Part shown: positions 4,949 to 18,532 of the stretch, one piece after another | Numbering within the stretch: the first letter of the stretch is position 1 | How the letters are laid out: each line of letters starts with the position of its first letter | DNA from: a virus | Virus record (IMG/VR): IMGVR_UViG_3300018057_000010 | Span: 1 to 64,000 of that record | DNA: 64,000 nt | Direction: 5' to 3' (one strand) | Translations under genes and position numbers: made by a program | Notes under the pieces: generated by a model | Told to the model about the DNA's origin: nothing | The model's input: the letters and a program-made list of their open reading frames with translations, nothing else | Database searches by the model: none

Positions 4949-5216
4949 CGGATAGCCTCCTGCCGATGAATTCGAGGACCGAAATTTGATCCACGGGACG
5001 TTTGCCGTCTGTGGTCGATTTGTAGTTCATCGTCTCCCGGCAGAAATACGTGCTCGGTTTCCCTGGCAGATACACCTGGGGATCGGCTCCGGTCTCGAAC
5101 GACATCGGCCTTGCTGTCGTATATTCCATGCCGATCACATCCGAACCGGGATAGCGCTCTACCTGTGGGCAAACTTCCTGACTGGGAATCCCCGATTGAT
5201 CGTTCTTCTTAGCCAT
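4938..5216 (-). CDS. Hypothetical protein
   Basis: 92 aa, SD upstream, operonic. Confidence 0.6.
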   Translation of the reverse strand: MAKKNDQSGIPSQEVCPQVERYPGSDVIGMEYTTARPMSFETGADPQVYLPGKPSTYFCRETMNYKSTTDGKRPVDQISVLEFIGRRLSGGE

Positions 5217-5227
5217 AACTTCTCCTC

Positions 5228-5599
5228 TTAAGACCTGCCGTCCGATCTCAATTCCGCTGCAGCCCGCAGGGCTCTTTCGACATATGCCGGTCGTTGCGAA
5301 ACCGGTTCCGGTCGGCGCTCGAAAGCGCTGCTGTCGTAATTCGCCGCGACGGAAACGACGCCATGCTCTTTTTCGAGCTGCCGCAGATGCTGCAAACTCT
5401 TCACATGCACCGGCCCCTTGCTGGGATCGCTGCTAAGGTGGGACGTCTCGAAGTCCCAAAGATTTCTCCCTGGATTCAGCTGATACTGCAAATGAACGCA
5501 GTCCTCGCAATACCACTTCCCGTCGCGGAAATGGAACTTGCCGCCCTTACGTTCCTTCGCCCATCGGCAATCCGGGTTCGCACAATATGTAGTAGCCAT
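5228..5599 (-). CDS. Zn-ribbon protein
   Basis: CxxxxC...CxxC motif, 123 aa. Confidence 0.6.
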   Translation of the reverse strand: MATTYCANPDCRWAKERKGGKFHFRDGKWYCEDCVHLQYQLNPGRNLWDFETSHLSSDPSKGPVHVKSLQHLRQLEKEHGVVSVAANYDSSAFERRPEPVSQRPAYVERALRAAAELRSDGRS

Positions 5600-5613
5600 C
5601 GTTACTGCCTTTC

Positions 5614-5700
5614 GCTCGGACGACCGTCAGGTCGTCGCTGTCTTTCGCTCGGAGCGCGCAGCGCTCGCTACTCCCCAGCTGCGGCGGCGAAGCCGCCACT
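5614..5700. repeat. REP-like hairpin cluster 1 (3 units)
   Basis: GACGACC-GTCA-GGTCGTC, GAGCGC-GCA-GCGCTC, GGCGGC-GAA-GCCGCC, each preceded by GCTNS. Confidence 0.85.
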
Positions 5701-6685
5701 AATGCCACTCACTGATCGGATGATTCTGCGCAAAGAGCGATCCTTGCCCGGTGTTATAGCCCCACTCCAACCCGTAAGCCCAAACCGAGTCCTGCTGCCA
5801 CATGCCGTCGTCGCTGCGTTCCATCATGTTGAGATCGGTTTCCGCTTCTCTCGCCTTCCAGCTGGCCACCGTGGGATCGTAATACTTGTTGTTCTTGCCG
5901 CCCCATAACAAGGCGTCCGCAATCGTCAGCTTCACCAGCACGTCGGCGCGGATAAAGGCCACCGGGCTATCTGCATCCGCATTCAGATTCGGTGGCTGGG
6001 TCGCCGCCCAGAACGGAAAGACCTGCAGGAAGAACGGCGAAGGATAGATCTCGATCTGCAACTGCCCATCCGGCGTCGGTTCCCGGTTGACAAAGAAATA
6101 CGACCAGCCAACGCTGGTGCGCCAAGCATCCGCCTCGTTCACGGACTGCACCGGCACATTGACGGACATGCGCCAGCCCTGCTGCTGATTCACCGCGTCC
6201 AGGATGTAACGCACGTTGGCGCCTAAGGTCCAATAGACTGCGGCGATCTGATAGCCGGTCGTCGTCAGCGTAGAGCCGCCGTAAGGGACGTCCAGAATCA
6301 AATGCGTTGCATCGATGACCTGCACAATCGTCTGCCAGGGATTGGTGAAGCCGACGCGGAATTGCTGCCCCTGCAGGGAGACGGTCCAGCTGGTTCCGAT
6401 TCCCGTCACCGCTGTCGATCCATTGACTACGGAAACAGAGCCGACGGTCGTCATCTGCGGCGTGTTGATCTGTCCGCGCAGCATCAGCCCGTACCAATAG
6501 CGCCGCTCGATCACCTTGCGGTAATTGTTGTTGATCATGCGGGCGATCAACAACGGATCGATATCCGGATTCCACAACTGCACCTCGCCGATCATCTGGC
6601 CGAAGTTCAGCTGCGTCGTATACGGCTGTGTGCCGTTGAACCCGTATTGATTCGGGAATAGCGGATTCCCAGGAACGATTGGCAT
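5699..6685 (-). CDS. Head-tail adaptor-like protein with inserted beta domain
   Basis: 328 aa; GSVSVVNGSTAVTGIGTSW insert; IEIYPSP motif. Confidence 0.55.
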   Translation of the reverse strand: MPIVPGNPLFPNQYGFNGTQPYTTQLNFGQMIGEVQLWNPDIDPLLIARMINNNYRKVIERRYWYGLMLRGQINTPQMTTVGSVSVVNGSTAVTGIGTSWTVSLQGQQFRVGFTNPWQTIVQVIDATHLILDVPYGGSTLTTTGYQIAAVYWTLGANVRYILDAVNQQQGWRMSVNVPVQSVNEADAWRTSVGWSYFFVNREPTPDGQLQIEIYPSPFFLQVFPFWAATQPPNLNADADSPVAFIRADVLVKLTIADALLWGGKNNKYYDPTVASWKAREAETDLNMMERSDDGMWQQDSVWAYGLEWGYNTGQGSLFAQNHPISEWH

Positions 6686-6728
6686 TACAGTTACTCCCAG
6701 CAGCGCCCTTAAAACTTCCTTGTTCCTC

Positions 6729-6784
6729 GCTCGGACGGCGAAGCCGTCGCTATCCGGACCTTAGCTTGGCGACGTAGTCGCGCT
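6729..6784. repeat. REP-like hairpin cluster 2 (2 units)
   Basis: GACGGC-GAA-GCCGTC and GCGAC-GTA-GTCGC with GCTYG/GCT flanks. Confidence 0.85.
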
Positions 6785-6983
6785 ACATCCCCCTCCCGGT
6801 CTTACGCTTGTGCTTCTTGGCAATCTTCTTCATGTTCTCGGCGAAGACGGCGCGTTTCTTTTGAACTCCGCCTTTCGCTTTGCCCCTGGCGATCTTCTTG
6901 GAGGTGGCCTTTCCGAATGCGCCCACCGTGCCCTTGCGCTCCATCCCTTCGCGTGCTTCCTGAATAAATTTCTCTCCCGCCAT
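6783..6983 (-). CDS. Small basic virion protein
   Basis: 66 aa, K/R-rich, ends KRKTGRGM. Confidence 0.65.
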   Translation of the reverse strand: MAGEKFIQEAREGMERKGTVGAFGKATSKKIARGKAKGGVQKKRAVFAENMKKIAKKHKRKTGRGM

Positions 6984-6985
6984 CG

Positions 6986-7345
6986 CTACATCCCCCTCCC
7001 GCTTTTGCGTTTCAAAAGCTTCTTGGCCTTCCGGGCTTTGTGGGCAGGGACGACATATTCGCCGCGATGCACCTTGGCGAGTCCGGTCTTTCTCACTGTG
7101 CCGCCATGCTTGTAAGAGGCGCGCACCGGCTGATTCGCCAAGCTGGCCGCTTCCTCGCGGGTATCTTCCAGCACGCCCTGCCCATAGCTCTGCATCGAGC
7201 GACCTGCCTTCTTTGCGGCTTTTCTATATCCCGAGGAACTGCTCTGGCTCCCTGACGTAGAGGATGAGCTAGGGCTAGAGCTGGAATTCGAGCTGGAGCT
7301 GGAGTCGCTGCCGCTGTCGCTATCGCCGTTGTCGAAAGGTCCCAT
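6986..7345 (-). CDS. Ser-rich/basic protein
   Basis: 119 aa; HGG..VHRGEYVVP motif; ends KRKSGRGM. Confidence 0.6.
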   Translation of the reverse strand: MGPFDNGDSDSGSDSSSSSNSSSSPSSSSTSGSQSSSSGYRKAAKKAGRSMQSYGQGVLEDTREEAASLANQPVRASYKHGGTVRKTGLAKVHRGEYVVPAHKARKAKKLLKRKSGRGM

Positions 7346-7371
7346 AATAGAGCCGTTCCCATAGCCAACCG

Positions 7372-7410
7372 AAAAAAGCGGTCAGCGGTGGCTATTACCG
7401 CTGACCGCTT
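7372..7410 (-). terminator. Intrinsic terminator after capsid-decoration genes
   Basis: AAGCGGTCAGCGGT/ACCGCTGACCGCTT inverted repeat followed by T-run on minus strand. Confidence 0.8.
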
Positions 7411-7433
7411 AGATAGCCCTATCTCCCCGTTAC

Positions 7434-7904
7434 TTAGTTGCCGAGCACCATTAACAGGAACGTGAAGCTCGACAAATCTGTACCCGCGCCAACTTCTGCG
7501 GCCTGAGCTGCAGCTGTTGCTGCACCCGTGAAGGTTGCGTTTGTGATGCTGGTAGCTGAGCCAGTTGTCGTGAACTGGTTGGCGACATTGCCTGCATAGA
7601 CAGGAGATGTCGTGCCTACGTTCGTAGCAATCGGAATTGAGATCGTGCCGCTTGGCGTGACGCTGCCCACGGAACGAATCATCAACTTGCCGGTTGTCGG
7701 CACCCATACGGGAAGGTAGCCGCCTTGCCCACCTATCGATACCACCCCATAGACAGCCCGCAAACTGATATTCACTCCGGGGGTTATTGCATAACCCCCG
7801 GTCGGATAATCGCTCGCGGCTGGTACGAGCTGAACAAAACGGACCTCTGTCTTTCCCCAGACATCCAGGCTCAGCGTCGCCATTAATGTGATCGTATAAG
7901 CCAT
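7434..7904 (-). CDS. Capsid-associated (decoration-like) protein
   Basis: 156 aa; YPTGGY motif; second gene after capsid. Confidence 0.55.
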   Translation of the reverse strand: MAYTITLMATLSLDVWGKTEVRFVQLVPAASDYPTGGYAITPGVNISLRAVYGVVSIGGQGGYLPVWVPTTGKLMIRSVGSVTPSGTISIPIATNVGTTSPVYAGNVANQFTTTGSATSITNATFTGAATAAAQAAEVGAGTDLSSFTFLLMVLGN

Positions 7905-7913
7905 CGCGTCTCC

Positions 7914-8552
7914 TTAGCTCTCCAGCGTGACCAGGATGTTGTACAAGCCGGTCGAAGGTGTCCCTGTCGCTGTCACTGCCCATCCGAGTACACGATTGGT
8001 CGGCGCAGTATTCGCTGTTACGAAAGCAGATTCGAATGCTGTCGTAGAACCAATGATCGCGGCTCCAGCTGTAATCGATCCTGTCGGAGAGGTAGCGAGT
8101 GCTCCGCTTACGTAACCACCAACACAGATCCAGATGAAGTTGTTATTCAGATTGGTTTGAACCGACGTGGCGCCGGATAGCACCAGATTCGGGATGGCGG
8201 TCGTATTCGGCATGATAAGTCCGGCGACGCCGTTAATCCCCCATCCTGAGGCGCTATAAAGCGGGGTGACTGATGTAAAGGTTGCGTCTACCCAATAACA
8301 GATCGCAGGCGCGGTCAGCAGTGTAATCGCCGTGTTCCCTGCATCGACATACTGCACGTAGCGGTACTTTCCCGGTACTCCCCAAGGATTTGAAAAGGTG
8401 CCGGTGGAGTCGTAATATGCAGCCCCCAGCGGATTGCGGTTGCCGGGATTGTTTGGGTAACCTGCATACCCGCTGACCGAAGGGTCAACTGTGGTCTGGA
8501 AATTACCCGAAGTAACTTGAGCGGTTTGAATTGAAGCTCCGAACTGTGCCAT
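7914..8552 (-). CDS. Capsid decoration/cement-like protein
   Basis: 212 aa directly after MCP; KYRYVQ and FIWICVGG motifs. Confidence 0.55.
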   Translation of the reverse strand: MAQFGASIQTAQVTSGNFQTTVDPSVSGYAGYPNNPGNRNPLGAAYYDSTGTFSNPWGVPGKYRYVQYVDAGNTAITLLTAPAICYWVDATFTSVTPLYSASGWGINGVAGLIMPNTTAIPNLVLSGATSVQTNLNNNFIWICVGGYVSGALATSPTGSITAGAAIIGSTTAFESAFVTANTAPTNRVLGWAVTATGTPSTGLYNILVTLES

Positions 8553-8579
8553 ATTTTTTCTCCTCTCCTCTCCGCTCGC

Positions 8580-9539
8580 TTAGCTCGTGTACCCAGCAAG
8601 TTGGAAGAACAAGCGTGGCGCGACAAACAGAAGGTTCCCGCCAAAGGCGTACTGTCCGCAGACATCGATGGAGTTCTGCGCTTCCTTCCAACCCGTGAAT
8701 CCGAATTGGAACAATGGCAGTGTCGAAATCCAGAACTGGATGTAGGCAGTGTTAAGTCCCCAGATCTTGCCGGTTGGGCAATACTGATCGACGACAATCG
8801 AGCTGCCGTTGAAGCGCAGCGACTGGAAGCCGACCTTCGCAACGTCGCTCGACTCTTCGAGGAAACGTTGCTGCGGTTGGATCTTCGACCAGATGCTGTC
8901 CCACAAGGGCTGAGTGGTGGCGATCAGATCGACATGCTCCGCGCCGAACCATGCGGCGCCGTAAGCTGTCTGCAGCTGAGAAAGGGCGAAAACGGCGTTG
9001 CTTGCGTAATACGCATTGATGCCGGTATTCGCTACCGTCGAAATGTCGGAACGGGTGATGCCGCCGTAACTTGCGTAGTTCGCAGGGATATTGATGGCGG
9101 CGTCGGCTCCATCCAAAGCGATGGGCTGGCTGTTGGTTCCCTGGCCGTCGAGATACATATCGGTAGCCAGCAACTGCGCCATGCGGCCGGCAGCGTTGAC
9201 CATCTTCGACTCGACGTAACTCATCGCGGCTTCGGGGCCACGGTTCAGAACGTTGTCGGTTCCGAACAGAGTCGCGTTGACATAGTAATACTTGACGTTG
9301 ACTTCGAGTGCGGTATCGGTCTGGACGTAGCTGGTGTCGAAAGAAGAGCCGCGTGCGAAGGGACCACCCTTCAGGGCCGCATACATGATCGGTTGACGGA
9401 TGGTCAGACCACCATCGAACCGCTCCATATTTCGCGTCCGCAACCGCGTCAACACAGGCGAGGACTTGTAAACTTCGTCGATCAGCCCCGGAATGATGAA
9501 CTTATTTGTTTTTGAACTTACATCGTCGTAAGTTAACAT
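8580..9539 (-). CDS. Major capsid protein (HK97 fold)
   Basis: ~319 aa after scaffold; DGGLTIRQPI, GFQSLRFNG..IVVDQYCP..IWGLNT motifs. Confidence 0.85.
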   Translation of the reverse strand: MLTYDDVSSKTNKFIIPGLIDEVYKSSPVLTRLRTRNMERFDGGLTIRQPIMYAALKGGPFARGSSFDTSYVQTDTALEVNVKYYYVNATLFGTDNVLNRGPEAAMSYVESKMVNAAGRMAQLLATDMYLDGQGTNSQPIALDGADAAINIPANYASYGGITRSDISTVANTGINAYYASNAVFALSQLQTAYGAAWFGAEHVDLIATTQPLWDSIWSKIQPQQRFLEESSDVAKVGFQSLRFNGSSIVVDQYCPTGKIWGLNTAYIQFWISTLPLFQFGFTGWKEAQNSIDVCGQYAFGGNLLFVAPRLFFQLAGYTS

Positions 9540-9544
9540 AGCTC

Positions 9545-9775
9545 CGTTATTGCCACCCAACTATCCGTGGCATTCCCTTTCAGCCCTAGATAGGGCAGAG
9601 ATATATCGCGTTCCTCAGCCGCAAGCTGCGTCCCAAGAGGAACCGAACCAAAGTCCGATTCCTGGACTTCTTGCTGACTGGATATCTCTGTCGCCTTCAG
9701 GCTGCGGAGCCGGGCTCCTTCCCTCTGGTGCAGATCGAACTGGTGGAGCCCGAAGGCCCCATAAAACTTGCGCCG
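9545..9775 (-). ncRNA. Candidate structured RNA in capsid 5' leader
   Basis: ~230-nt intergenic region with several hairpins (GGGGCC-UUCG-GGCUCC; CAGAGAUAU/AUAUCUCUG; GCCCUA/UAGGGC; GCCAC/GUGGC). Confidence 0.45.
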
Positions 9776-10696
9776 CTAAAACTTGTTTTCAGCCCGAAGC
9801 TCGGCGGCGGCCTGCGCGGCAAGTACGCCGCTTCCCGCTGCCTGCTTCTCGGCGTTGTCCTTCTCAATCTTCATTTGCAAGGCGCCCTTCGGGGCAAAGC
9901 CGCTCGAAGGAGTGCCACCGTTTAAAGCCTGTCCGGAAAACTGTTGGCGAAGTTCGGCTTCTCTTACCTTCATGCGCTCTTCGACCTTGGTCTCCAATTC
10001 CTTCTCCTGGCGCTTCGGTCGGACATACTCTTCGTAAGCCTTCTTCGGATCGACCAAATTGCGCTCTCGCATAAAATCGGCAAACTCCTGGCGGTTTAAG
10101 TTCCCGCCGAATTCCGCCTTATGATCCATCACCAGCTCCGTGACGTCGGCGATAAAGTTCGTCGTGGCAGGCAACGTCTCCTCGTAATACTTCTTGTTGG
10201 CGTCCTGCACATACTTCTGTGCTTCTTCCAAAGCCATCTCCGACTTATGCGTCTTGATGATCTCGCCGATCTCGGTCTTGGAAACATATCCCAACCCGGC
10301 GATCGTCTCTTTTACACGGCGTTCCAACTCAGCGGCGTCCACTTGATCTCCTCCCTCGGCTACACGTTGCACCTTCGCTTCTTCCAGCTGTTTCTGCAGT
10401 TCGTTTGCCTGCTTCTCCAGCTCCTGCGCATGCTCCAAAGCCCGGTCGTGAATGGGCTTGTTCTCCGTGTACCAGTCCTCAAGTTCTTTCGCTCGCTTCG
10501 TCGCCTTGTCTACGTCGCCTTTTGTTTTGTTCATGTAACGGTCGTAGTCCGATTGCCGCAAGCCGCGCTCCGCAAGCTTCTTATTGAAGTCGCCGTTTCG
10601 CTTCAGTATGTTTTCAAAGACCGCTGCATCTTCTTTCGCCATATGCGGAAGAAGTTCGGCCAGATCGTCAGCCGTCAAACCTGTGATTTCAGCCAT
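9776..10696 (-). CDS. Capsid scaffolding protein
   Basis: 306 aa charged coiled-coil immediately upstream of MCP. Confidence 0.75.
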   Translation of the reverse strand: MAEITGLTADDLAELLPHMAKEDAAVFENILKRNGDFNKKLAERGLRQSDYDRYMNKTKGDVDKATKRAKELEDWYTENKPIHDRALEHAQELEKQANELQKQLEEAKVQRVAEGGDQVDAAELERRVKETIAGLGYVSKTEIGEIIKTHKSEMALEEAQKYVQDANKKYYEETLPATTNFIADVTELVMDHKAEFGGNLNRQEFADFMRERNLVDPKKAYEEYVRPKRQEKELETKVEERMKVREAELRQQFSGQALNGGTPSSGFAPKGALQMKIEKDNAEKQAAGSGVLAAQAAAELRAENKF

Positions 10697-10780
10697 CTTT
10701 CCCTCTCTCCTTCTTCGCTTCCCATCTACTGCCTGGGCTGGGCAAAGCTGCGGAGTGCAAATTAGCTATCGACTCGTTAC

Positions 10781-11134
10781 TTATCCAGGCATGTTACCGG
10801 CAGACGCTCCCTGAGGAACCGCTCCGGCATTCTCTCTGCCTTGTGTCTGGCCTTCGGGCTTCTGCCCTCCGGCTTCTTCCATGCCTGCCTTTAAGATGGC
10901 GATGGCCCTCTGCACATATGGCCCCATCTTGTTGTTCATCCTGACCATGTTTGTCAGAACTTTTTCCACCCCATCGTAGGCATTCTTCAGCGGGTTACCC
11001 GCCGCGTCGCGTTGCGCCATCATGCCGCCGACGCCCGCGAACGGAGTCTCTCCACCGCCGCCGCCACCGCCGAGTTGCGCTTGTATGTCTGGAGAAACCG
11101 GAGGCCTCTCCATCGCCATTGGACGAGTAGCCAT
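10781..11134 (-). CDS. Hypothetical head-module protein
   Basis: 117 aa G/P/M-rich. Confidence 0.6.
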   Translation of the reverse strand: MATRPMAMERPPVSPDIQAQLGGGGGGGETPFAGVGGMMAQRDAAGNPLKNAYDGVEKVLTNMVRMNNKMGPYVQRAIAILKAGMEEAGGQKPEGQTQGRENAGAVPQGASAGNMPG

Positions 11135-11143
11135 CGTTATCTC

Positions 11144-11335
11144 TTACTGCTCCATGCCCGAGCTGGTCCCTGTTTTGACGTTCGGCGAGGTCGCCTTCGG
11201 AAAGGTGCTGGTCATGGCGCCTGCGTCCATGTAAGTGCCCACAGCCTCGAACTTCCCTTTGCGAACGCTGGGTGGCTGCGAATTCTCCCCGTGGTTCTCG
11301 TATCCGGGGTCAGTCTTTTTCTTCACGGAAGACAT
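11144..11335 (-). CDS. Hypothetical protein
   Basis: ATG start MSSVKKK; operonic. Confidence 0.5.
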   Translation of the reverse strand: MSSVKKKTDPGYENHGENSQPPSVRKGKFEAVGTYMDAGAMTSTFPKATSPNVKTGTSSGMEQ

Positions 11336-11426
11336 TGCATCGACTCCAATCGCTCTTTGGATAAAGGGGGTGAAAACCTGCGCGCCTTCACCCCTCTTGG
11401 TTAGTCTGTCTCCAGACAATCACTGC

Positions 11427-11486
11427 TTACCGCTTGGTTTTACGACCATGCTTACGACGGTTCGCGACAAAAGTCTCACCGAACAT
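11427..11486 (-). CDS. 19-aa basic micropeptide MFGETFVANRRKHGRKTKR
   Basis: Perfect AAGGAGG SD 5 nt before ATG; TAA stop. Confidence 0.6.
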   Translation of the reverse strand: MFGETFVANRRKHGRKTKR

Positions 11487-11614
11487 AGCTGCCTCCTTTT
11501 CTCCAGGTTTCCCTGGCGGGGTTTTATTGAGTGCGCGAGTAGCCTTGTTTGAGGTACTTCGCCCCTCGCGGCCTCCACCGCAACAACTATTGGAGGAATC
11601 ACTACTGCGGCAAA

Positions 11615-11651
11615 GAAAAAGCCCCCACAGAGCTGTTAACTCTGTGGGGGC
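11615..11651 (-). terminator. Intrinsic terminator/attenuator
   Basis: 12-bp stem GCCCCCACAGAG/CTCTGTGGGGGC plus T-run. Confidence 0.85.
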
Positions 11652-11705
11652 TAAACTTCGCTGACCGGACTCGCCGGAGGTCGGATTCTTTGCCCGTCGA
11701 CTTAG

Positions 11706-11734
11706 ATACTTATGTCATTCGCAACAAATGTCAA
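11706..11734 (-). promoter_or_regulatory. Sigma70-type promoter
   Basis: TTGACA-N17-AAGTAT. Confidence 0.55.
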
Positions 11735-11768
11735 GTCCTAAACAAATTTTGTTCCGTTTCTTGCTTTT

Positions 11769-11843
11769 GCTTGGAGGGCGAAGCCCTCGCTGACCGCTTT
11801 TTAGCTGACCGGCCCTTAGCTTGGAGCGGCGAAGCCGCTCGCT
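11769..11843. repeat. REP-like hairpin cluster 3 (2 units)
   Basis: GAGGGC-GAA-GCCCTC; GAGCGGC-GAA-GCCGCTC. Confidence 0.85.
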
Positions 11844-12045
11844 ACTTATACGTCCTCGCCACGTTCGCAAATATCTTCGCCACGCCCCCCTGCGAATAAT
11901 GCATTTCGATCCGTCCGCTGTCCTTATTGGAACGGAAGTCGACCATCGCTTTTACCAGCTCCAGCGGAAGTTCGAGATCGACATCTCCAGAACCGTACTG
12001 GACTTTCACGTTCACCACGTCACGTCTCTGCGCCATCGTCGCCAT
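11842..12045 (-). CDS. Small protein, DUF2292/YezD-like
   Basis: 67 aa; SGRIEMHYSQGGVAKI beta-hairpin pattern. Confidence 0.45.
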   Translation of the reverse strand: MATMAQRRDVVNVKVQYGSGDVDLELPLELVKAMVDFRSNKDSGRIEMHYSQGGVAKIFANVARTYK

Positions 12046-12050
12046 ATTTT

Positions 12051-13880
12051 TTATCCTGCCTTCTTCTGCCCTTTAGCTGGTGTTGGCGAAACCACAGCTC
12101 TCAGTTTAGCTTCCTCTAGCATCTCTTGTATCATGCGATCTACATCCACATTGATGTCGAGGATGCGATAAAGTTCCCGTAGCGACATCGCCTTTGCCAT
12201 GTAAAGCTTCATGGCATAGTTAACTCGTTCCATCCTTTGCGTGCTGAGGAGCGATCCGCGTTCGATCTTGAATTTAAACTTACGTGCATAGGCTTCGGGT
12301 TCCATCCCGGCAGGAACCAGGGTTCCCGGACTGGCGTCGAAATCTGCGGGCGTCATTCCCTGACTTCCCAGCAGCTCAACCCTTCTTTCTGCGGTATAGA
12401 ACTGTAGCACGCAGGGAATGAAAAGCATTCCCAAATCGCCGATGAATCCCTCGATGCTTCGGCCCATCATGCGGATCGGCGTATTGCGCGCATTTTTCAG
12501 CTGCTCCAGCGAGTCTCCACTGGGAATCTGTTTTTTCCGCGCTGCGTCGGCGACCGCCGACGCGCCGGACGACATGTCCATTTCCTGAGAAACAATCGAG
12601 TTAAGTTGCAGCACGTAGGCCGGGACATTGGGCGGCGGCCGGAACTCCGGTCGATGTGGAGAGTTCGCGCTGTATTGCGCCTTCTCGTTCGGCCGTGACA
12701 TGTCCAGCCCCTTCCATGCCTCCGGACTGAAAGCATTCTTCGGCGCCAGCAGCGGCGGGCTTACCGCCAGCTTGACCATGTTCAGCACGCCGCCGATGAT
12801 CTGGTTGATCACGTCCTGCATGCTCATCCATGGCTTGATGACGCTCTCTCCATGGAATTGCCATGGCACAGCCTGCAATCGCAACATCGCGAACGGATAT
12901 CTCCCATGCCAATAAGGATTCGGCTGGTCGTCCAGGATCACGTTGTTCGCCATGACGATCACCCGCCCTCGCGGATAGAGCGGCTGATTCGGCTGAACTT
13001 CGTAACACCAGTTGGTGTCTTTCTTCCCTACCAGAACCGGCTTGTTGGATTTATTTACCGTGGAATCGCGCAGCCAGAATTCCCTTAACTCCGCCTTGGG
13101 GAAGACGCTGAATGTTTGTTCGGCTGCTTGCCCGATCTTTCTGCGCATCCCTGGAGAAAGGCTCATAAAGAGTTGCGGCGATATGTGCGCCGGGGCGCTG
13201 GAGTTCATCTCGAACTTGGAATAGTTCGCATCCGGCTGCACCGCATAGCCGGTCAGAGGATACTTGCGCCGCAGAAATTCGAGCGTGACCACTCGCCGAT
13301 AGATCACCAGTTCTGCTTCTTGGATGTCGTTGTCCGCGCCCAGCTGCAGCAGCGACAAGGGCGATACCGGGAGAATCACGATATCGCCTCTTCCGCTATC
13401 CGCAAAGGGGTCCCACTCGATCTTTGCGTATCCCGTGCTGAGCATGGCGTACATCGTGACCATGCTTAGCTTTACGTCGAAGTTCGTCATCAGAGCCCAG
13501 GCCCGCGTGATTCGATTCAATATGTCCTGGGTGCGGGAATAGATCTCTGTCTTATCGATGGCATGCACTTCGAAAATCGGCCGGATATCCGTCAGCAGCC
13601 CGACCGTCTCCCAGAACAATCGGCGCATCCGGTTCGTCACCGGCTTAGCGCGATGAGCCGGAACCTGTCCCTTCCACTGCATGCCCGAGAGATAATCCAG
13701 ATACGTGTTCATCTGTTTCATCTCCTCGGCATCTTCGTTGTTGCGCTTAGCTTCTTCGTAGGCCGAGTTGCAGAATTGACGGATCTGCGCAGAGTAGTCC
13801 GACGTGGTAGGCGTCGTCGTTCCTCCCTGCGCTGCTCCGGCAGAGGAATGGATCTCCGATTCTGTGAGTATTGAAGACAC
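12051..13880 (-). CDS. Portal protein (P22-like)
   Basis: 609 aa after TerL; GYAKIEWD, YPRGRVIV, PYWHGRYPF, QDVINQI motifs. Confidence 0.9.
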   Translation of the reverse strand: MSSILTESEIHSSAGAAQGGTTTPTTSDYSAQIRQFCNSAYEEAKRNNEDAEEMKQMNTYLDYLSGMQWKGQVPAHRAKPVTNRMRRLFWETVGLLTDIRPIFEVHAIDKTEIYSRTQDILNRITRAWALMTNFDVKLSMVTMYAMLSTGYAKIEWDPFADSGRGDIVILPVSPLSLLQLGADNDIQEAELVIYRRVVTLEFLRRKYPLTGYAVQPDANYSKFEMNSSAPAHISPQLFMSLSPGMRRKIGQAAEQTFSVFPKAELREFWLRDSTVNKSNKPVLVGKKDTNWCYEVQPNQPLYPRGRVIVMANNVILDDQPNPYWHGRYPFAMLRLQAVPWQFHGESVIKPWMSMQDVINQIIGGVLNMVKLAVSPPLLAPKNAFSPEAWKGLDMSRPNEKAQYSANSPHRPEFRPPPNVPAYVLQLNSIVSQEMDMSSGASAVADAARKKQIPSGDSLEQLKNARNTPIRMMGRSIEGFIGDLGMLFIPCVLQFYTAERRVELLGSQGMTPADFDASPGTLVPAGMEPEAYARKFKFKIERGSLLSTQRMERVNYAMKLYMAKAMSLRELYRILDINVDVDRMIQEMLEEAKLRAVVSPTPAKGQKKAG

Positions 13881-14512
13881 TAGCTTATCCAGTCGTTCTC
13901 AAGTGCGTCCTGCAGATACTTGCTAAGAAAGTCCTCTAGTGAAACGGAATTTTCGTTGGCTTTGATCATGGCCTTCATCGTCCATGCACCCAGGTCGACG
14001 CCGACGCCTTGCACCGATCCCGTCGCTTTCCCGGCGCCCACCTGCTTTTCCAGCTGCTCTTTCTGAAAGCGGAGATCTTTGATCTCCTCGCCGAGTTGGA
14101 AGATCATCCCAAATAACTCGGAGGAGCTCTCCGGTTTCTTGCCCAGCCGCTGCCCGATCCTCTCGATGTCGGAACTGGAGACGATCAGCATCTCCGGCTC
14201 GGCGCAGGCCTGCAAGATACTGGAGATACTGGGAACCAGCTTGTCTCCATACTTTGCCTCCAACGCTTTGCGCGTATTCTCCGGCACGCCGACTTCGAAT
14301 TTCGTGTAGTTCTGCTGAACGATGTTGGGCTTCGGCGCAACCTTCAGCATTCGCGGCCTTAGCTCACGTAGCTCGTACATGTCATTCCAGGTGTGTGCAT
14401 CGTTTCCCGTTTCACAGGAGACTTTCATCCCCGGTACTTCTGCGTATAGTTCCGACGTAACTCCCACTATGTCGCATAGTGGACACGCCAGACCTGCTCT
14501 CACTCTAGGCAT
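13880..14512 (-). CDS. Zn-ribbon plus ribbon-helix-helix-like protein
   Basis: CPLC...C..H N-terminus; C-terminal strand-helix-helix pattern. Confidence 0.5.
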   Translation of the reverse strand: MPRVRAGLACPLCDIVGVTSELYAEVPGMKVSCETGNDAHTWNDMYELRELRPRMLKVAPKPNIVQQNYTKFEVGVPENTRKALEAKYGDKLVPSISSILQACAEPEMLIVSSSDIERIGQRLGKKPESSSELFGMIFQLGEEIKDLRFQKEQLEKQVGAGKATGSVQGVGVDLGAWTMKAMIKANENSVSLEDFLSKYLQDALENDWIS

Positions 14513-14726
14513 TTCCTATTCCCTCTCTTGCAATTCGCCCTTTAATCACGGCGGCGACAAACTCCACCATGCCGAGCTTCCGATGGTCGGCCGTCGTCGT
14601 CTTGTGCCAGGAGATCGACCCATCCTTATTCACGAAGATGATCAGGCAATCCTGCGCATCCTCGACCTCTTCGAGCGCGCCCATCAACGTCGCCGATGCG
14701 CTCCTGTCGGTTGTTGACTCTGCCAT
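14505..14726 (-). CDS. Hypothetical protein
   Basis: 73 aa, GGAGG SD. Confidence 0.65.
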   Translation of the reverse strand: MAESTTDRSASATLMGALEEVEDAQDCLIIFVNKDGSISWHKTTTADHRKLGMVEFVAAVIKGRIAREGIGNA

Positions 14727-14739
14727 CGAACTTCCTCCC

Positions 14740-14826
14740 GCTCGGACGGCCGCCAGGTCGTCGCTGTCTTTCGCTCGGAGCGGCGCAGCCGCTCGCTACT
14801 TCCCAGCAGCGGCGCTCCGCGCCGCT
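14740..14826. repeat. REP-like hairpin cluster 4 (3 units)
   Basis: GACGGCC-GCCA-GGTCGTC; GAGCGGC-GCA-GCCGCTC; GGCGC-TCC-GCGCC. Confidence 0.85.
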
Positions 14827-16960
14827 AAAATTGCAGCCATGCATTCGGATCGCTGATATCCGGAGGCTCCTCCGCTATCTGCTCCAGCGTTACCGTTTCG
14901 TGATTGATCGATTCCGGCGTATAGCCGAGGTCGTAATACATACGGCTACGAATGCCGCTGCTGTTGTAGATCGGCGAGTAGATCGTGTTGAAGTGATCCG
15001 TAGCCTGCGGCGCCGCCATAATCGAGCCGCCTGGATACTTCTGGAATTCCGCGTAGGCGACGGCCCGCTCTTTGTATTCCCCGATCTTCCGGTTGAACTT
15101 ATCGAGGACGTACCATGTGGAATTTCCAGCCGAGGAAGAGTTCATCGGCCTGGCTAGCGCCGCCTTCCCATAGTCGGACTCATGCGCGCAGTAACGGCAG
15201 ATCATCATGGCCATGACGCGGTCGTCTTTTGTAGCGCGGCCCTTCGCCTTGCCCTCTCCGTTTTCGTCGAAGGCGAAATCCATCATCTCGTCGATCAGCA
15301 ATTCGCTGCGCAGGACGATGGAGCGCTCCAGCAGCGCCTCGTTCATCTTGGCGATGATCGCGTCGCGGGATTTCCAGTTCGTCTCCCACCCCATGAAATC
15401 GGTCATGAAGTTCTTGACCTTGTCGAGATGCTTCCACCGATAGATGTTGTCGTACTCGATGACCCGGAAGATCTCGTTATTCGTGACCTTGCCGACGTTG
15501 TTGCATTCGACCGCCACCTGCGCCATGTTGTAGTAAGTGGCGACGGCGCAAACAATGTAGGCGAAGGGCGTCGGATTGATCCAGCCGCGCCACTCCGCTA
15601 CCTGAACATCGGGCTCCATGCCTGCGCCGATCTTCAGCACTTCGATGCAGCTGAAGTCGCCGCCCTCGACGCCTTGTGCAACATCTCCAGATACGTAATA
15701 GGTGGCCTCCTCCTCTGGCTTTTCCCAGACCCAGAAGCGGTCTTCTGTCTTGGGATTGTGGAGGATCTCTCCCTTGTTGACTGGGTGCAACGCCACTCGC
15801 TCTTTGCGCGCATCCCGGTCGTAATTGATTTCTCCGACAAACCGGGGCGCGACGCACGTTGTCGCCAGCAATTTATAGAGGAGACGCCGATTGAAGGCGC
15901 ACACGCCGGAGCCTTGGAAGGCCTCCATCCAGTTCGATGGATATTCCTGCATGAATCCGAATTCGTCGCCTTCGAGCGATACGAATTCCGCAGCTTTTAT
16001 GCGGCGCCAATTCAAGACTTCGTCGCTGATGTTGAACGCGGAATCTTCCAGGATCTTCTTCCGGTACTCCTCTTCGTCTGCCGTGGCGATGAAGGTCTCG
16101 CCCTTCTTGATCGGCAAGGAATACTTGCGCACGCGATAGAAAGGAATGAAGACAGGGTGCCAGGTCGTCTTGCCGTCGACCGTGTCGCGCCAGAAACGAT
16201 ACCAGAAGCCGCTGCGCCCTTCGGCCGTGGACTCCATGAAGGCCATCACGTCCGGAGCATTCATCGTCGGGAAGATCTGCTGCGTCAGGGCTTCGCCGTT
16301 ATCCCACGTAGCCAGCTCGCTCATATGGCAGCAGCGGATCGTCTTCCCGCGAGCGACGCCGGTATCTTTGTTCGCTGCTTCGACAAAGATGTTCGAGCGC
16401 ATGCCGGGACTCATCTTGCGCATCAGGTCGTCCTTGCGGTCGAACTGCAGCACGCGCCCCTTCTGGTCGTAGCGGACTTCGGGGCGCATCCACCAGGGCA
16501 AGCAGTCGTACGCCAGTCGGGACATCTCGAACTGGTCGTCGGCCTTCATCGTGTCCGTAGCGACGATCAGCGTGTTGCACGTTGGGGTGAAGAGCGTCTT
16601 CCAGAAGACCATGCCTTCGCAGATCGTCGACAGGCCCAGCTGGCGGGCCTTCAAAATCATGATCTTGACTTGCCCTCCGGCAGTCTTCAGTTCGATCACG
16701 GCTTCATAGAAGATTTCCTGCGAATCCCAGAAAGGAGAAAGCGTCTTCAACCCTTGGTGCTCGGTTCGGATGATGTGGTAGTTTTCCAGGTAATAGCGGG
16801 GATCGGTGACGCAGTGCAGGATCTCTCCCGCGATAAAATCCTTCTCGGTTGTGCCCAGCTTTTCCCAGGCGAGATACGTGTTGCCTTGCACGGCAATGTA
16901 ATACTCGTCCATCATTTCGATGAACTCGTTCAAGTGAGGATTGGCGCGGATAATGTCCAT
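14825..16960 (-). CDS. terL: Terminase large subunit
   Basis: ILKARQLGLST Walker A, HMSELA Walker B, ESTAEG, SGDVAQG..GDFS and DDRVMA nuclease motifs. Confidence 0.95.
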   Translation of the reverse strand: MDIIRANPHLNEFIEMMDEYYIAVQGNTYLAWEKLGTTEKDFIAGEILHCVTDPRYYLENYHIIRTEHQGLKTLSPFWDSQEIFYEAVIELKTAGGQVKIMILKARQLGLSTICEGMVFWKTLFTPTCNTLIVATDTMKADDQFEMSRLAYDCLPWWMRPEVRYDQKGRVLQFDRKDDLMRKMSPGMRSNIFVEAANKDTGVARGKTIRCCHMSELATWDNGEALTQQIFPTMNAPDVMAFMESTAEGRSGFWYRFWRDTVDGKTTWHPVFIPFYRVRKYSLPIKKGETFIATADEEEYRKKILEDSAFNISDEVLNWRRIKAAEFVSLEGDEFGFMQEYPSNWMEAFQGSGVCAFNRRLLYKLLATTCVAPRFVGEINYDRDARKERVALHPVNKGEILHNPKTEDRFWVWEKPEEEATYYVSGDVAQGVEGGDFSCIEVLKIGAGMEPDVQVAEWRGWINPTPFAYIVCAVATYYNMAQVAVECNNVGKVTNNEIFRVIEYDNIYRWKHLDKVKNFMTDFMGWETNWKSRDAIIAKMNEALLERSIVLRSELLIDEMMDFAFDENGEGKAKGRATKDDRVMAMMICRYCAHESDYGKAALARPMNSSSAGNSTWYVLDKFNRKIGEYKERAVAYAEFQKYPGGSIMAAPQATDHFNTIYSPIYNSSGIRSRMYYDLGYTPESINHETVTLEQIAEEPPDISDPNAWLQF

Positions 16961-17565
16961 TACGCCTGCACCATCCCTTCATCCTCGTCGCTGCTGTCGT
17001 CTTCCTTTTCCGCTTCGATGACGTCTGCCGTCTCTCTGGGTAGTTCGTTATGGGCGTGTACTTTATCGAGCACGGAGCGCAGCATGCTTTCGTAACCGCC
17101 GTTGCGCATATTCGTCTGGTTGGCTTGGTTCGCGTTATTCTGCTGTACGCTTACGCTGATGCCGCTGCCTTTGGGCTGCATCGCCTCCAGAAACTTGCCG
17201 TACACCTGCAGCGTTTTCAACTGCGTCTCCGTATCGTCTACGGGAACAAACTGGTTGCTTCCGTCCGCATTCTTGCGCTCCAGGAAGTTCTGCGCCTTTA
17301 GCCCTTTCTTAAAGGCCTGATCCACGCCGCGCATGTTTCCCATCAGCATCGAGATCACGGCCGTGCTCAGGTTTTGCTGAGTATGAACAGCGCGTTCCAT
17401 CGAAACCTGCCGGATGGATTTCTCGATAGCCTTTATGCTGACGCCTTCCGACTGAGCGATCTCTTCGACCTTCTCGCCCATATCCTTGCGCAGATAGCGC
17501 ATGTAGTGGCGCGCCTGTGTCTGCGCAAGCGTCGACGTTTTCGGGCTGGCTTTGGTTCGTGGCAT
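16960..17565 (-). CDS. Probable terminase small subunit
   Basis: N-terminal HTH (VEEIAQSEGVSIKAI), directly upstream of TerL. Confidence 0.65.
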   Translation of the reverse strand: MPRTKASPKTSTLAQTQARHYMRYLRKDMGEKVEEIAQSEGVSIKAIEKSIRQVSMERAVHTQQNLSTAVISMLMGNMRGVDQAFKKGLKAQNFLERKNADGSNQFVPVDDTETQLKTLQVYGKFLEAMQPKGSGISVSVQQNNANQANQTNMRNGGYESMLRSVLDKVHAHNELPRETADVIEAEKEDDSSDEDEGMVQA

Positions 17566-17575
17566 TCTTCCGTCC

Positions 17576-17615
17576 AAAAAGAAAAAGGCCCACGGAGAGA
17601 ATTTCTCCGTGAGCC
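17576..17615 (-). terminator. Intrinsic terminator/attenuator before terS
   Basis: GGCTCACGGAGA/TCTCCGTGGGCC stem plus T-run. Confidence 0.85.
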
Positions 17616-17676
17616 AATCTGCACTGAGCGGTTTCGTCTTTCGACCGCAGTTTAGATTCGGTGCTCGTTCGTATTT

Positions 17677-17705
17677 ATCCTGGAGCCAGCCAACTCGGCT
17701 GTCAA
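17677..17705 (-). promoter_or_regulatory. Sigma70-type (late) promoter
   Basis: TTGACA-N17-CAGGAT. Confidence 0.55.
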
Positions 17706-17715
17706 CAAGTCTTTA

Positions 17716-17799
17716 GCTAGGAGGGCGAAGCCCTCGCTGCTTCTTGCTCGGACGCCGAAGGCGTCGCTACCCTCCAGCTGCGGCGGCGAAGCCGCCGCT
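17716..17799. repeat. REP-like hairpin cluster 5 (3 units)
   Basis: GAGGGC-GAA-GCCCTC; GACGCC-GAA-GGCGTC; GGCGGC-GAA-GCCGCC. Confidence 0.85.
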
Positions 17800-17802
17800 C
17801 CA

Positions 17803-18315
17803 TCAGCTCTCTACATAGTTCACCTGAGAGGGGTCGGGAAGCGGGATCTTGTCCGGCGACGTCTCGATCCCCTGCGCCCTCAACTCATTCTCTAAGTCCA
17901 GCTTTGCCAAGTCGCTATCGCTTTGCGATAACAGTCCGGCATCTTCTGGCTTAGCATAGTCTTCCTCGTAGAAGTTCGGCGGCGCCGGTAGAGGCCCACC
18001 GCGAACAGCGAAGGCCGTTTCCGGATGTTCGGTCGGCGCCTGCACTACCAGCGCCGTGAATGTCTTGACCGCCGCCGCCATCGACTCTGTCGACGTTATC
18101 AGTCGCCGGTTCACCTGGACCATGGACGTCATCGACGACGATATCTGCGCAGCTCCTTCGAATACATTCGCTAATCGATCCATCCCGGAAACAACCAACT
18201 GCAATTGTTTATTGGTCGCCACAATCCATTTGGCGCTCCAGTAGATAAGAAAGCTCAAGGCCAGGATACAAGCTCCCATGATCCCGCCCACAAGGAGTTG
18301 ATCGAAGTTCGACAT
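17803..18315 (-). CDS. Membrane-anchored coiled-coil protein
   Basis: N-terminal TM helix, 170 aa. Confidence 0.6.
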   Translation of the reverse strand: MSNFDQLLVGGIMGACILALSFLIYWSAKWIVATNKQLQLVVSGMDRLANVFEGAAQISSSMTSMVQVNRRLITSTESMAAAVKTFTALVVQAPTEHPETAFAVRGGPLPAPPNFYEEDYAKPEDAGLLSQSDSDLAKLDLENELRAQGIETSPDKIPLPDPSQVNYVES

Positions 18316-18316
18316 T

Positions 18317-18532
18317 CTATTTCACTCTTGTCGCCATGCCGGTAAGTCGTTGATCGTGATGAATCTGGTAACTGCAACCCGTCTTTTCATTGCTGCAGGT
18401 ATACACAATCTGATGCAGCTTTCCATTTGGCCCCTTCTCCTGGGTTACCGTCATCTTCTCCCCGCACATGGAGCAGTACGCATCGGGAGCCATAATAGGA
18501 TTAAGTTCCGGTAGCATTGTTCTTCCTTTCAA
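18317..18532 (-). CDS. Small Zn-ribbon protein
   Basis: CxxC...CxxxxxC. Confidence 0.55.
   Translation of the reverse strand: MKGRTMLPELNPIMAPDAYCSMCGEKMTVTQEKGPNGKLHQIVYTCSNEKTGCSYQIHHDQRLTGMATRVK

Follow-up and report, generated by a model that had tools for sequence, protein, structure and literature searches.

Covarying mini-hairpins at late-gene boundaries of a peat-soil phage: candidate intercistronic stem-loop modules

The late operon of a phage from peat soil carries thirteen small hairpins in five intergenic gaps, with stems that differ in sequence while their pairing is kept. We propose, tentatively and with a probability of about 0.4, that these are non-terminating stem-loops of the late mRNA which delimit cistrons and which, in the manner of PeSL or REP elements, have been copied from one gene boundary to another. 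The window (the whole stretch of DNA analysed, 64,000 nt of IMG/VR record IMGVR_UViG_3300018057_000010) belongs to a phage genome of 79,137 bp that is 95%-complete. The sequence evidence supports a hairpin family that is real and specific to the phage lineage, and that is selected, or at least maintained, for structure.

A hairpin family in five late-gene gaps

Each unit takes the form AG(C/T)-stem(5-8 bp)-loop(3-4 nt)-stem-NN-(A/T)GC, and the genome holds exactly 13. Both strands of the whole genome were scanned for AG(C/T), a stem of 5-8 bp with at most one wobble or mismatch, a loop of 3-5 nt, the returning stem, one or two free bases and (A/T)GC. In its relaxed form the scan placed 13/13 units on the minus (gene) strand, within five gaps between 5.6 and 17.8 kb, with one further, unrelated match at 21451 and none on the plus strand. 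The strict form returned 10 units on the minus strand and 0 on the plus strand, whereas 100 dinucleotide shuffles gave 0.31 on average and 3 at most. About 40 other non-coding gaps of at least 60 nt in the genome are free of units. The five clusters, their common orientation and their confinement to this region had been named in the original prediction, and all were recovered.

Read on the plus strand, the loops are GTCA, GCA, GAA, GAA, GTA, GAA, GAA, GCCA, GCA, TCC, GAA, GAA and GAA, so that 12 of the 13 read G-N(N)-A (U..C on the sense strand), with variation confined to the middle loop base; the exceptional loop, in the unit at 14808-14826, is GGA on the minus strand. This agrees with what was first noticed, down to the exception, as does the loop-closing pair, which is C-G in every unit. 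The stems covary: 98% of cells are paired, double changes occur at five of the six stem pairs, and 14 double-changed cells were observed versus 3.7 +/- 1.7 in shuffles, a count reached in 0/500. G.U pairs are absent from 54 aligned stem cells, and the swaps are mainly G:C to C:G flips together with a symmetric one-base-pair insertion. The covarying stems and the constant flanks and closing pair uphold the idea of a phage-specific, structure-encoded family; the N4-type and REP/RAYT readings attached to it fared worse (see below).

The flanks are more uniform than the stems. Direct AGC repeats flank the units, the distance from loop to 3' AGC shifts with stem length, and the minus-strand GTAGC head that had been ascribed to several units is present in 5/13, the others beginning with ATAGC, CAGC, TTAG(C/T) or GGAGC. 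As RNA, each hairpin has a predicted stability of -5 to -16 kcal/mol. On the sense strand no unit is followed by a U/T tract. Rfam covariance models gave nothing near gathering score over 5000-18500, nor in focused scans of clusters 1 and 5.

Because the half-sites vary with pairing kept and the orientation is fixed, a folded strand is indicated and not a sequence-specific duplex site. The alternative, that the units are duplex palindromic operators bound by a dimeric protein, has a parallel in Cluster O mycobacteriophages, whose 17-bp repeats show the same 7+3+7 geometry and also lie in short gaps (PMC4351075). Yet Cluster O repeats have invariant half-sites and random orientation (PMC4351075), whereas the half-sites here vary freely, and we consider duplex operators very improbable.

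Placement at gene boundaries and in the late transcript

All genes of the cluster region lie on the minus strand. As foreseen, four clusters start at or within a TAG stop (5701-5699, 6785-6783, 11844-11842 and 14827-14825), with TAG making up 24% of minus-strand stops genome-wide; the fifth cluster is preceded by a TGA stop (17805-17803). From the last unit to the next start codon there are 14-45 nt, and the three promoter-less gaps measure 99, 97 and 98 nt.

All units that follow are on the minus strand. Cluster 5 contains a type-B hairpin (17780-17798) with an 8-bp all-GC stem and sense loop UUC, which lies 4 nt past the TGA of ORF 17803-18315 and is followed by AGCTGG. Its two type-A units are GTAGC-GACGCC-UUC-GGCGUC-CGAGC (17746-17768) and CAGC-GAGGGC-UUC-GCCCUC-CUAGC (17716-17738), the second being identical to a cluster 3 unit, CAGC-GAGGGC-UUC-GCCCUC-CAAGC (11769-11791), except for one flank base. 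The other unit of cluster 3 (type A, 11819-11843) begins at the TAG of a 67-aa ORF that follows the portal gene, and its outer TAGC/GCTA pairs could lengthen the helix across a CAA bulge. In cluster 4, the 8-bp stem of the type-B hairpin (14808-14826) includes the AG of the terL TAG stop, and its sense loop, GGA, is the sole one of opposite polarity; a type-A unit, GTAGC-GAGCGGC-UGC-GCCGCUC-CGAGC (14773-14797), and a type-A tetraloop unit (14740-14765), in which a sense A.C mismatch corresponds to a G.T wobble on the plus strand, complete the group. Cluster 2 comprises a type-A unit with a 5-bp stem and UAC loop that begins at the TAG of a 66-aa ORF (6764-6784), and a second, AUAGC-GACGGC-UUC-GCCGUC-CGAGC (6729-6751), upstream of the fibre-like gene at 5699-6685. 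The TAG of that gene is overlapped by the type-B hairpin of cluster 1 (5681-5699), paired through 6 bp, a U.G and a G-C; three metagenome runs show C in place of the sense U at 5698, and the 8-bp stem is then perfect. Type-A units of this cluster are GTAGC-GAGCGC-UGC-GCGCUC-CGAGC (5647-5669) and one with a UGAC tetraloop and 7-bp stem (5614-5639), with the ATG of ORF 5228-5599 14 nt on. A decayed copy had also been suggested near 10747-10768. The stretch 10745-10780 (minus strand), directly past a TAA stop, is a plausible relic as judged by reading, with flank-like GTAAC..., ...AGCTAA, CGCAGCT and GCAGTAG; the hairpin itself is gone.

The clusters align with each other, and at the sequence level the modules are shown to have multiplied by duplication. 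Clusters 3 and 5 lie in the two copies of a duplicated cassette of ~250 nt, made up of hairpins, a TTGACA promoter, a leader and a terminator. The remainder of the cassette past cluster 5 (17587-17705, minus strand) consists of TTGACA at 17705-17700, a 17-nt spacer, CAGGAT at 17682-17677, the leader and a strong intrinsic terminator at 17615-17587, which precedes a terS-like ORF; past cluster 3 (11620-11734, minus strand) come TTGACA at 11734-11729, a 17-nt spacer, AAGTAT at 11711-11706, the leader and a 15-bp terminator at 11652-11620. The TTGACA boxes expected beside two clusters are therefore in place, each following its cluster. The cassette promoters (TTGACA-N17-(A/C)AG(T/G)AT) have weak -10 boxes and were missed by a consensus scan; clusters 1, 2 and 4 have no promoter. 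The region's three true terminators have stems of 12-15 bp and a T run, so that the mini-hairpins, with no U tract, are not intrinsic terminators.

Since both late promoters are directly followed by terminators, some antitermination is needed, and the hairpins could be nut- or put-like sites, transcribed with their flanks to load a factor or to act on RNA polymerase, giving read-through of the terminators 100-200 nt downstream (17615-17587 and 11652-11620) and beyond. The order gene-hairpins-terminator at clusters 3 and 5 mirrors that of phage lambda, cro-nutR-tR1, and a conserved single-stranded flank with a small hairpin resembles boxA plus boxB. Nonetheless, 13 hairpins in five places far exceed known nut and put systems, terminators are missing from the vicinity of clusters 1, 2 and 4, no module lies within the 3 kb upstream of the terminator at 7410-7376, the pyrimidine triloops are unlike the GNRA-like pentaloops of boxB, and no N-like or Q-like protein was recognised in the phage. 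This role seems distinctly improbable.

We favour lineage-specific intercistronic boundary modules of the late (virion-gene) operon that would act in the sense-strand mRNA. Each module spans the untranslated gap that opens at the upstream stop, for which it often provides the TAG, and reaches close to the next ribosome-binding site or promoter; the gap is filled by two or three very stable non-terminator stem-loops joined by purine-rich, single-stranded linkers. By inferred mechanism, the stem-loops would block 3'-to-5' exonucleases, protect the 5' ends that endonucleases create by cutting the linkers or the A/U-rich stretch that follows, and hold the untranslated gap folded. The late transcript would in this way be split into segments of separate stability and translation for the packaging, portal, head and fibre genes. 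The single-stranded flanks (AGC ... C-N-AGC) are conserved while the stems vary freely, which suggests a sequence-specific factor reading the flanks and the hairpin shape. Consistent with the mRNA reading are the non-random occurrence of 13 units on one strand in five gaps where 0.31 would be expected, the maintained pairing, the predicted RNA stability, a placement that tracks stop codons and next starts, and the dissimilarity to the phage's terminators. The duplicated cassette also follows the logic of PeSL elements, in which a stem-loop precedes a promoter where genes meet (PMC2839356). On the other hand, the genes before the clusters (terL, the portal module, small ORFs and fibre) are not the abundant ones, and a logic of stabilising the abundant message does not fit, as no module follows the major capsid gene. 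The phage was not found in any RNA run.

Strand evidence and occurrence elsewhere

Evidence on which strand folds is mixed, the G..A loop rule favouring the plus strand and two of three wobble cases the sense strand. On the sense strand, G.U accounts for two of the three imperfect pairs, namely the polymorphic U/C at 5698 and a unit in foreign context (GAGGCC/GGUCUC), and both speak for mRNA. The third, in unit 14740-14765, pairs properly on the plus strand only and speaks against it. We know of no special stability of c-UNC-g RNA triloops comparable to that of the corresponding DNA. The preserved sense U..C, plus-strand G..A, matches the loop rule of cGNAg, a DNA mini-hairpin of very high stability (PMC13037366), and stems without G.U, changed by flips and a symmetric insertion, look more like maintenance of a DNA palindrome than stepwise RNA compensation. 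Co-orientation with transcription is inseparable from co-orientation with replication, because the region's genes share one strand.

These features are the substance of a DNA-level account, in which the plus (template) strand folds into cGNAg mini-hairpins read by a candidate structure-specific protein such as a nickase, primase, recombinase or SSB-excluding factor. Folding would come about by supercoil-driven extrusion behind heavily transcribed late genes, or when the strand is single-stranded in replication. Twelve of 13 loops, the invariant C-G closure and a middle loop base that alone varies obey the loop and closing rule seen in N4 promoter hairpin extrusion (PMC4496689) and in the ssDNA priming signals of G4 and ssiA (PMC13037366). 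The wobble-free core stems and the unit that is perfect on the plus strand only point the same way, as does the appearance of one B stem with both loop polarities (sense GGA here, sense UCC in a foreign contig), a DNA-type flip. Loop polarity is largely inherited, all units deriving from one ancestor, and is weak statistical evidence for that reason. No candidate enzyme was found in the genome among Y1/HUH transposases, T7/N4-type RNA polymerases and tyrosine recombinases (PF00589 without a match in the 95%-complete genome), a signal for replication or priming in general would be expected beyond 12 of 79 kb, and the two sense-strand wobbles count against it. We regard a DNA-level signal as unlikely. 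A narrower version would have the template strand extrude cGNAg hairpins where the packaging, portal, head and fibre modules meet, to be read by a putative phage or host enzyme for strand-specific nicking, priming or attC-like cassette exchange; it is more doubtful still.

The N4-type form of this account, with the template-strand hairpins as start signals for a phage single-subunit RNA polymerase on late genes, is close to refuted. The geometry matches N4 P1-P3 (PMC4496689), but no gene for the virion or T7-like polymerase that this reading needs was found in the 95%-complete genome. PF00940 found no match in the genome, a null that is weak by itself since control genomes likewise gave none; no unassigned ORF is long enough for the 1,106-aa mini-vRNAP domain either. 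The biggest ORFs are those of fibre, Cas9, terL and portal, of which the first two (1,141 and 1,067 aa) are the sole ORFs above 711 aa. Tandem groups at stop codons, where single sites with a conserved start region would be called for, and the sigma-70-like TTGACA promoters also oppose it.

Whether the units have a dedicated function in the phage at all is a further question. They could be selfish or neutral palindromic repeats (REP-, SMAG- or MITE-like, or by-products of slippage or template switching) that spread into permissive intergenic sites, for instance in a prophage exposed to a host RAYT, and were kept perfect by hairpin-templated repair. Suggestive of this are the GTAGC heads of five units, the flanking AGC repeats, the palindrome-type mutation pattern, and the relic, which implies that modules decay without loss of the phage. 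The phage encodes a serine integrase and IS66, and for this reason is probably temperate and open to invasion. Peat metagenome contigs, moreover, carry the same modules between foreign genes: unit 5647-5669 with its linker lies between foreign sequences, and contigs match the window only over module segments (5637-5669; 17716-17785; break at 6738) before continuing into sequence not in this genome.

Complete relatives do without the modules, which fits a dispensable repeat. Relatives with a portal identity of 59% or less lack the units, complete genomes included. At the junction matching cluster 3, the closest available relative (L126, 73% portal identity) carries a GGGTTAG-like repeat, G-rich on the sense strand, a further element whose folding is restricted to the mRNA-like strand, and in other relatives the intercistronic gaps are also structured, with unrelated sequence. 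Both observations accord with the mRNA reading.

Several results weigh against a selfish repeat. PF01797 had no match at E <= 1 in the 95%-complete genome, with control matches in 10/14 genomes, and neither the Y1 transposase nor the many dispersed copies that a REP/RAYT reading needs were found. Bacterial genomes, one for each of 185,579 species, were scanned with the degenerate unit, a two-unit pattern, the linker 19-mer and a 21-mer unit, and all four scans returned single chance or coding matches only. Spill-over of host REPs, which had been named as one outcome that would undo the original prediction, therefore finds no populated genome as far as public genomes show; the host itself may be missing from this collection. 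The copies all point the same way, the inverted pairs that are typical for BIMEs and REPINs being absent, and placement runs strictly from stop codon to RBS in gaps of 97-99 nt. As the units belong to a duplicated promoter-terminator cassette, a role in expression can be argued, and we hold a purely selfish origin to be unlikely.

Late operons are usually seen as plain polycistronic units, and here the module boundaries bear dedicated, rapidly evolving, structure-constrained punctuation, common also to co-occurring phages. If the modules act in RNA, they would be a compact natural insulator that sets separate stabilities within one transcript. If they act in DNA, they would extend the cGNAg mini-hairpin signals of N4, G4 and RSF1010 to a temperate peat phage without an N4-type polymerase and might explain module exchange; should a strand-specific enzyme read the extruded hairpins, the shuffling of phage modules would be guided by a recombination signal of its own, encoded in structure.

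Comparison with known systems

Like integron attC sites, the units lie directly past a gene's stop, are co-oriented and keep structure while sequence varies. attC sites measure 57-141 bp and have their functional hairpin on the bottom strand; a match was rejected, with GTTRRRY/RYYYAAC cores absent from the units, a very different size and no IntI-type tyrosine recombinase (PF00589).

Repeated stable, non-terminating hairpins between cistrons of long phage transcripts have reportedly been described as RNase III sites in T7 (Dunn & Studier 1983) and as C(UUCG)G hairpins in T4 (Tuerk et al. 1988). The present units differ in having UNC triloops instead of UUCG tetraloops, conserved flanks and varying stems. 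RNase III processing sites of the T7 type span about two turns of double-stranded RNA, for which stems of 5-8 bp are too short.

The early promoters P1-P3 of N4, which the virion RNA polymerase recognises as hairpins, share the template-strand location, a 5-7-bp stem, a 3-nt G-N-A loop, C-G closure and a variable stem with pairing kept (PMC4496689). Unlike them, the units here accompany late genes as tandem arrays abutting stops, lack a conserved start region at fixed distance from the loop, and occur in a genome without a virion or T7-like polymerase gene.

With REP, BIME and SMAG elements the units share small size, GC-richness, palindromic form and an extragenic position at the 3' ends of genes, sometimes in clusters, and some have a GTAG-type tetranucleotide on the 5' side; REPs stabilise upstream mRNA. 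They differ in their 13 copies within one 12-kb phage stretch, with no RAYT gene and no populated host genome found, in their uniformly direct orientation, in far shorter, mostly perfect stems (5-8 bp) and in the presence of GTAG in only 5/13.

The PeSL (promoter-early stem-loop) cassettes of T4-type phages (Arbiol et al. 2010; PMC2839356) differ in several respects. Only two of the five clusters here have a promoter, no U tract accompanies the mini-hairpins, the canonical terminator is a distinct element past the promoter, stem sequences covary whereas PeSL stems are conserved G/C runs, and the modules sit in the late core operon and not in hyperplastic early regions. What the two seem to share is a GC-rich stem-loop with a sigma-70-like promoter, present in many copies per phage genome at the boundaries of genes that may be exchangeable and common to related phages in differing contexts. 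Since such repeated hairpin-plus-promoter cassettes at phage gene boundaries are already known (PMC2839356), the label of an undescribed system, originally given to these hairpins, was too strong.

Hairpin units and their cassettes

Thirteen GC-rich mini-hairpins occupy five intergenic gaps of the late operon, at 5614-5700, 6729-6784, 11769-11843, 14740-14826 and 17716-17799 (clusters 1 to 5), with the minus strand as their sense strand. Searched with a relaxed pattern, the whole genome returned exactly these 13 units in five clusters, as originally predicted, all on the minus strand and none on the plus, besides one unrelated match at 21451. A strict scan found 10 on the minus strand and 0 on the plus, compared with a mean of 0.31 (maximum 3) in 100 dinucleotide shuffles, and some 40 other gaps of at least 60 nt in the genome are free of units. 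On the sense strand, a unit comprises AG(C/T), a 5-8-bp GC-rich stem, a loop of 3-4 nt, the complementary arm, two nucleotides and (A/T)GC. Ten units are of type A, AGC-GA-NNN(N)-loop-NNN(N)-UC-C(G/A/U)AGC; in the three of type B, (A/U)GCUGG comes after a stem made up of G and C alone, and the unit is always the first element past a stop codon. Read on the plus strand, the loop begins with G and ends with A in 12 of the 13 units, the middle base alone varying. The earlier tallies for loops, loop-closing pairs, TAG stops and TTGACA boxes were likewise borne out.

The five clusters are mutually homologous. Clusters 1, 4 and 5 have the order B-A-A, repeating every 29-33 nt, with purine-rich linkers such as GGGGAGU and GAAAGAC; clusters 2 and 3 each consist of an A-A pair and have the linker CCAAGCUAAGG in common. 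The three gaps lacking a promoter measure 99, 97 and 98 nt. The first unit of a cluster overlaps or abuts the stop codon, which is TAG at four of five clusters compared with 24% genome-wide (p ~0.013), so the unit's own (U)AGC head often supplies the stop. A probable relic without a hairpin lies just past the TAA stop at 10781-10783.

Clusters 3 and 5 form the upstream ends of a larger duplicated cassette of ~250 nt, with minus-strand copies at 11600-11850 and 17570-17806, in which the hairpins are followed by TTGACA, a 17-nt spacer, (A/C)AG(T/G)AT, a ~60-nt leader and a strong terminator; the leaders match base for base in several blocks. The two copies correspond to two promoter-leader-terminator attenuators predicted separately, whose layout is thereby confirmed. 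The perfect -35 box, weak -10 box and terminator directly after imply a late activator or antiterminator. This arrangement brings to mind nut- or put-like antitermination sites, an improbable role for the hairpins. Minus-strand intrinsic terminators with 12-15-bp stems and T runs lie at 11652-11620, 7410-7376 and 17615-17587. No mini-hairpin has a T run on the sense strand, and terminator-like plus-strand matches at three units were rejected as not above shuffle expectation. The terminator at 7376-7410, with a 14-bp stem and a T run, falls inside the longest mechanical ORF (7093-7983), which is therefore probably spurious, the real genes being 7434-7904 and 6986-7345.

The record is 79,137 bp long (53% GC, estimated 95% complete), the window being its first 64 kb, and the minus strand carries nearly all of its genes. 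The virion operon, running on the minus strand from 18 kb down to 5 kb, includes a terS-like ORF, terL (14825-16960), the portal gene (12051-13880), the major head protein gene (8580-9560) and a fibre-like gene (5699-6685), all minus. No function could be assigned from PHROG to the small ORFs that adjoin the clusters. A three-finger C2H2 protein (23237-24163) is a candidate binder of the hairpins. The genome also encodes DnaB, a C5 methylase and, at 34602-36194 and 58213-59958, an IS66-family transposase and a large serine recombinase; given these last two, the phage is probably temperate and was entered by at least one mobile element. Beyond the window, CRISPR-like repeats of two classes (periods ~66 and ~73 nt) at genome positions 76082-76250, 77428 and 78950-79130 adjoin a plus-strand 1,067-aa Cas9-like ORF (72855-76058); the hairpin units bear no convincing likeness to these repeats.

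Stem covariation and strand of folding

The predicted covariation of the stems holds. Loop-centred 15-mers of the eleven triloop units were compared, MAFFT whole-unit alignments having been discarded for their wrong structural register, and 98.1% of the 54 stem cells are Watson-Crick paired. Both sides have changed in five of six stem pairs, giving 14 doubly changed cells compared with 3.7 +/- 1.7 in shuffles (0 of 500 reach it), a signal that is lost when the register is slid. The loop-closing C-G pair is invariant, no aligned stem cell shows a one-sided G.U state, and the variable core changes mostly by G:C to C:G flips. Moreover, clusters 1 and 4 differ by a symmetric one-bp insertion in a stem beside an identical flanking linker of 27 nt. 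Such flips and the symmetric insertion are of the kind that hairpin-templated correction of DNA palindromes yields, and are atypical of stepwise RNA compensation through G.U. Folds of whole clusters do not exceed those of shuffles in stability (z from +0.5 to -2.4), a consequence of the GC-rich sequence; the signal resides in covariation, not in energy. The covariation shows that pairing is kept, compatible with function on either molecule. Duplex operators are a very doubtful reading of units whose stems change in sequence while pairing persists.

Nearest-neighbour energies are equal on both strands except at imperfect pairs, leaving a few features to speak for one strand or the other. The G..A loop rule, followed by 12 of 13 units, counts for the plus strand, being that of the unusually stable cGNAg DNA mini-hairpin (PMC13037366) and of the extrusion of N4 promoter hairpins (PMC4496689). 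Promoters of the N4 type, a comparison drawn in the original prediction, match this loop, but no T7-like RNA polymerase domain was found in the 95%-complete genome and, of its ORFs, only a fibre and Cas9 exceed 711 aa, making such promoters highly improbable. The unit at 14740-14765 again counts for the plus strand, on which an A.C mismatch of the sense strand becomes a G.T wobble. Two units count for the sense strand: in the cluster 1 B hairpin, pair seven is U.G on that strand, and a unit on a foreign contig, GAGGCC/GGUCUC, contains a sense-strand G.U whose plus-strand counterpart would be A.C. Plus-strand 5698 A>G (sense U to C), seen in three of four peat runs, turns the cluster 1 stem into a perfect one and gives it back its AGC head. 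Since all units come from one ancestor, their shared loop polarity is largely a matter of descent, and one B loop occurs on the same stem in both polarities, as sense GGA here and sense UCC in a foreign contig. A structure-specific signal acting at the DNA level, for which the loop rule and the wobble speak and against which the two sense-strand G.U pairs stand, is possible though unlikely.

Distribution among relatives and peat metagenomes

The phage is present in at least 24 public DNA runs from peat and wetland, with no RNA run among those containing it. Contigs of four runs, which are blind to rare variants and molecule ends, show 19 variant positions across 4.5-18.5 kb, with one in a hairpin (5698). 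Some contigs match the window solely over module segments, namely 5637-5669 (three runs) and 17716-17785 (two runs), and in one run a contig breaks at 6738. These contigs continue into sequence found neither in this genome nor in any compared locus, and there too the modules lie between a stop and a start codon. The modules are therefore common to co-occurring genomes with different neighbouring genes. Contigs also break within genes, at 5260-5300, 6075, 11052-11072 and 14667, among them the fibre-like gene in its N-terminal part, which suggests mosaic relatives of the phage in the same peat samples. A 34-nt stretch of terL (15421-15454) is the sole window match of contigs in three peat runs, with foreign sequence on both sides; it could be a conserved terminase motif that other phages have as well, or mark a mosaic junction or a site of insertion.

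Portal homologues number 285 at E <= 1e-10, and the portals P0002-P0014, of close relatives, are 61-68% identical. No unit arrays occur in the portal-bearing relatives compared from IMG/VR and JGI metagenomes (L117-L153), those at <=59% portal identity having none within 10 kb of the portal, and two complete relatives (96.9 and 96.5 kb) gave zero pattern matches. The phage collection yielded no match to megablast or tblastn, no Rfam family was matched, and pattern scans of IMG/VR returned isolated chance or coding matches only. The closest relative compared, L126, which is represented by 1.7 kb and has 73% portal identity, carries in the gap past a conserved 67-aa ORF (L126:1400-1460), the site of cluster 3, a sense-strand G-rich telomere-like tandem repeat (GGGTTAG / GGGAATA) with the potential to fold into a G-quadruplex as RNA or as non-template DNA. 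Other relatives have structured gaps of unrelated kinds. Past the head genes of two loci with 44% portal identity (L132:13883-14109 and L135:12856-12940), purine-rich gaps hold repeated GAAGC and small hairpins, another implementation of structured intercistronic gaps.

Ordinary spill-over of host REPs, against which the original prediction was to be judged, found no support: scanning one genome per species across 185,579 prokaryotic species gave isolated chance or coding matches only (for example, a 21-mer encoding SERLRRS in high-GC genomes). Nor does the predicted REP/RAYT link have its enzyme, as the 95%-complete genome contains no Y1 transposase (RAYT); a tyrosine recombinase is also absent. 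A selfish or neutral palindromic repeat, to which the modules shared among unrelated gene neighbourhoods would be congenial, is a minority possibility.

Boundary modules and known systems

We tentatively favor, at a probability of about 0.4 and from sequence comparison, a reading in which duplicated boundary modules would punctuate the mRNA. It draws on the ties of the modules to translation signals, their place in a promoter-terminator cassette, their clearly not being terminators, and the other sense-strand structures that relatives place at the same kind of junction. Its weak points are the G..A loop rule, the absence of G.U pairs and the position of the modules beside genes other than the abundant ones. 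The alternatives are partly compatible with one another; REPs, for example, are mobile and mRNA-stabilizing at once.

The nearest known systems are PeSL cassettes, REP/SMAG elements, N4 promoter hairpins and phage intercistronic hairpins. The hairpin family belongs to none of the four, because at least one defining feature of each failed. By analogy, it nevertheless appears to act like a known kind of element, the repeated structured boundary elements of phage genomes.
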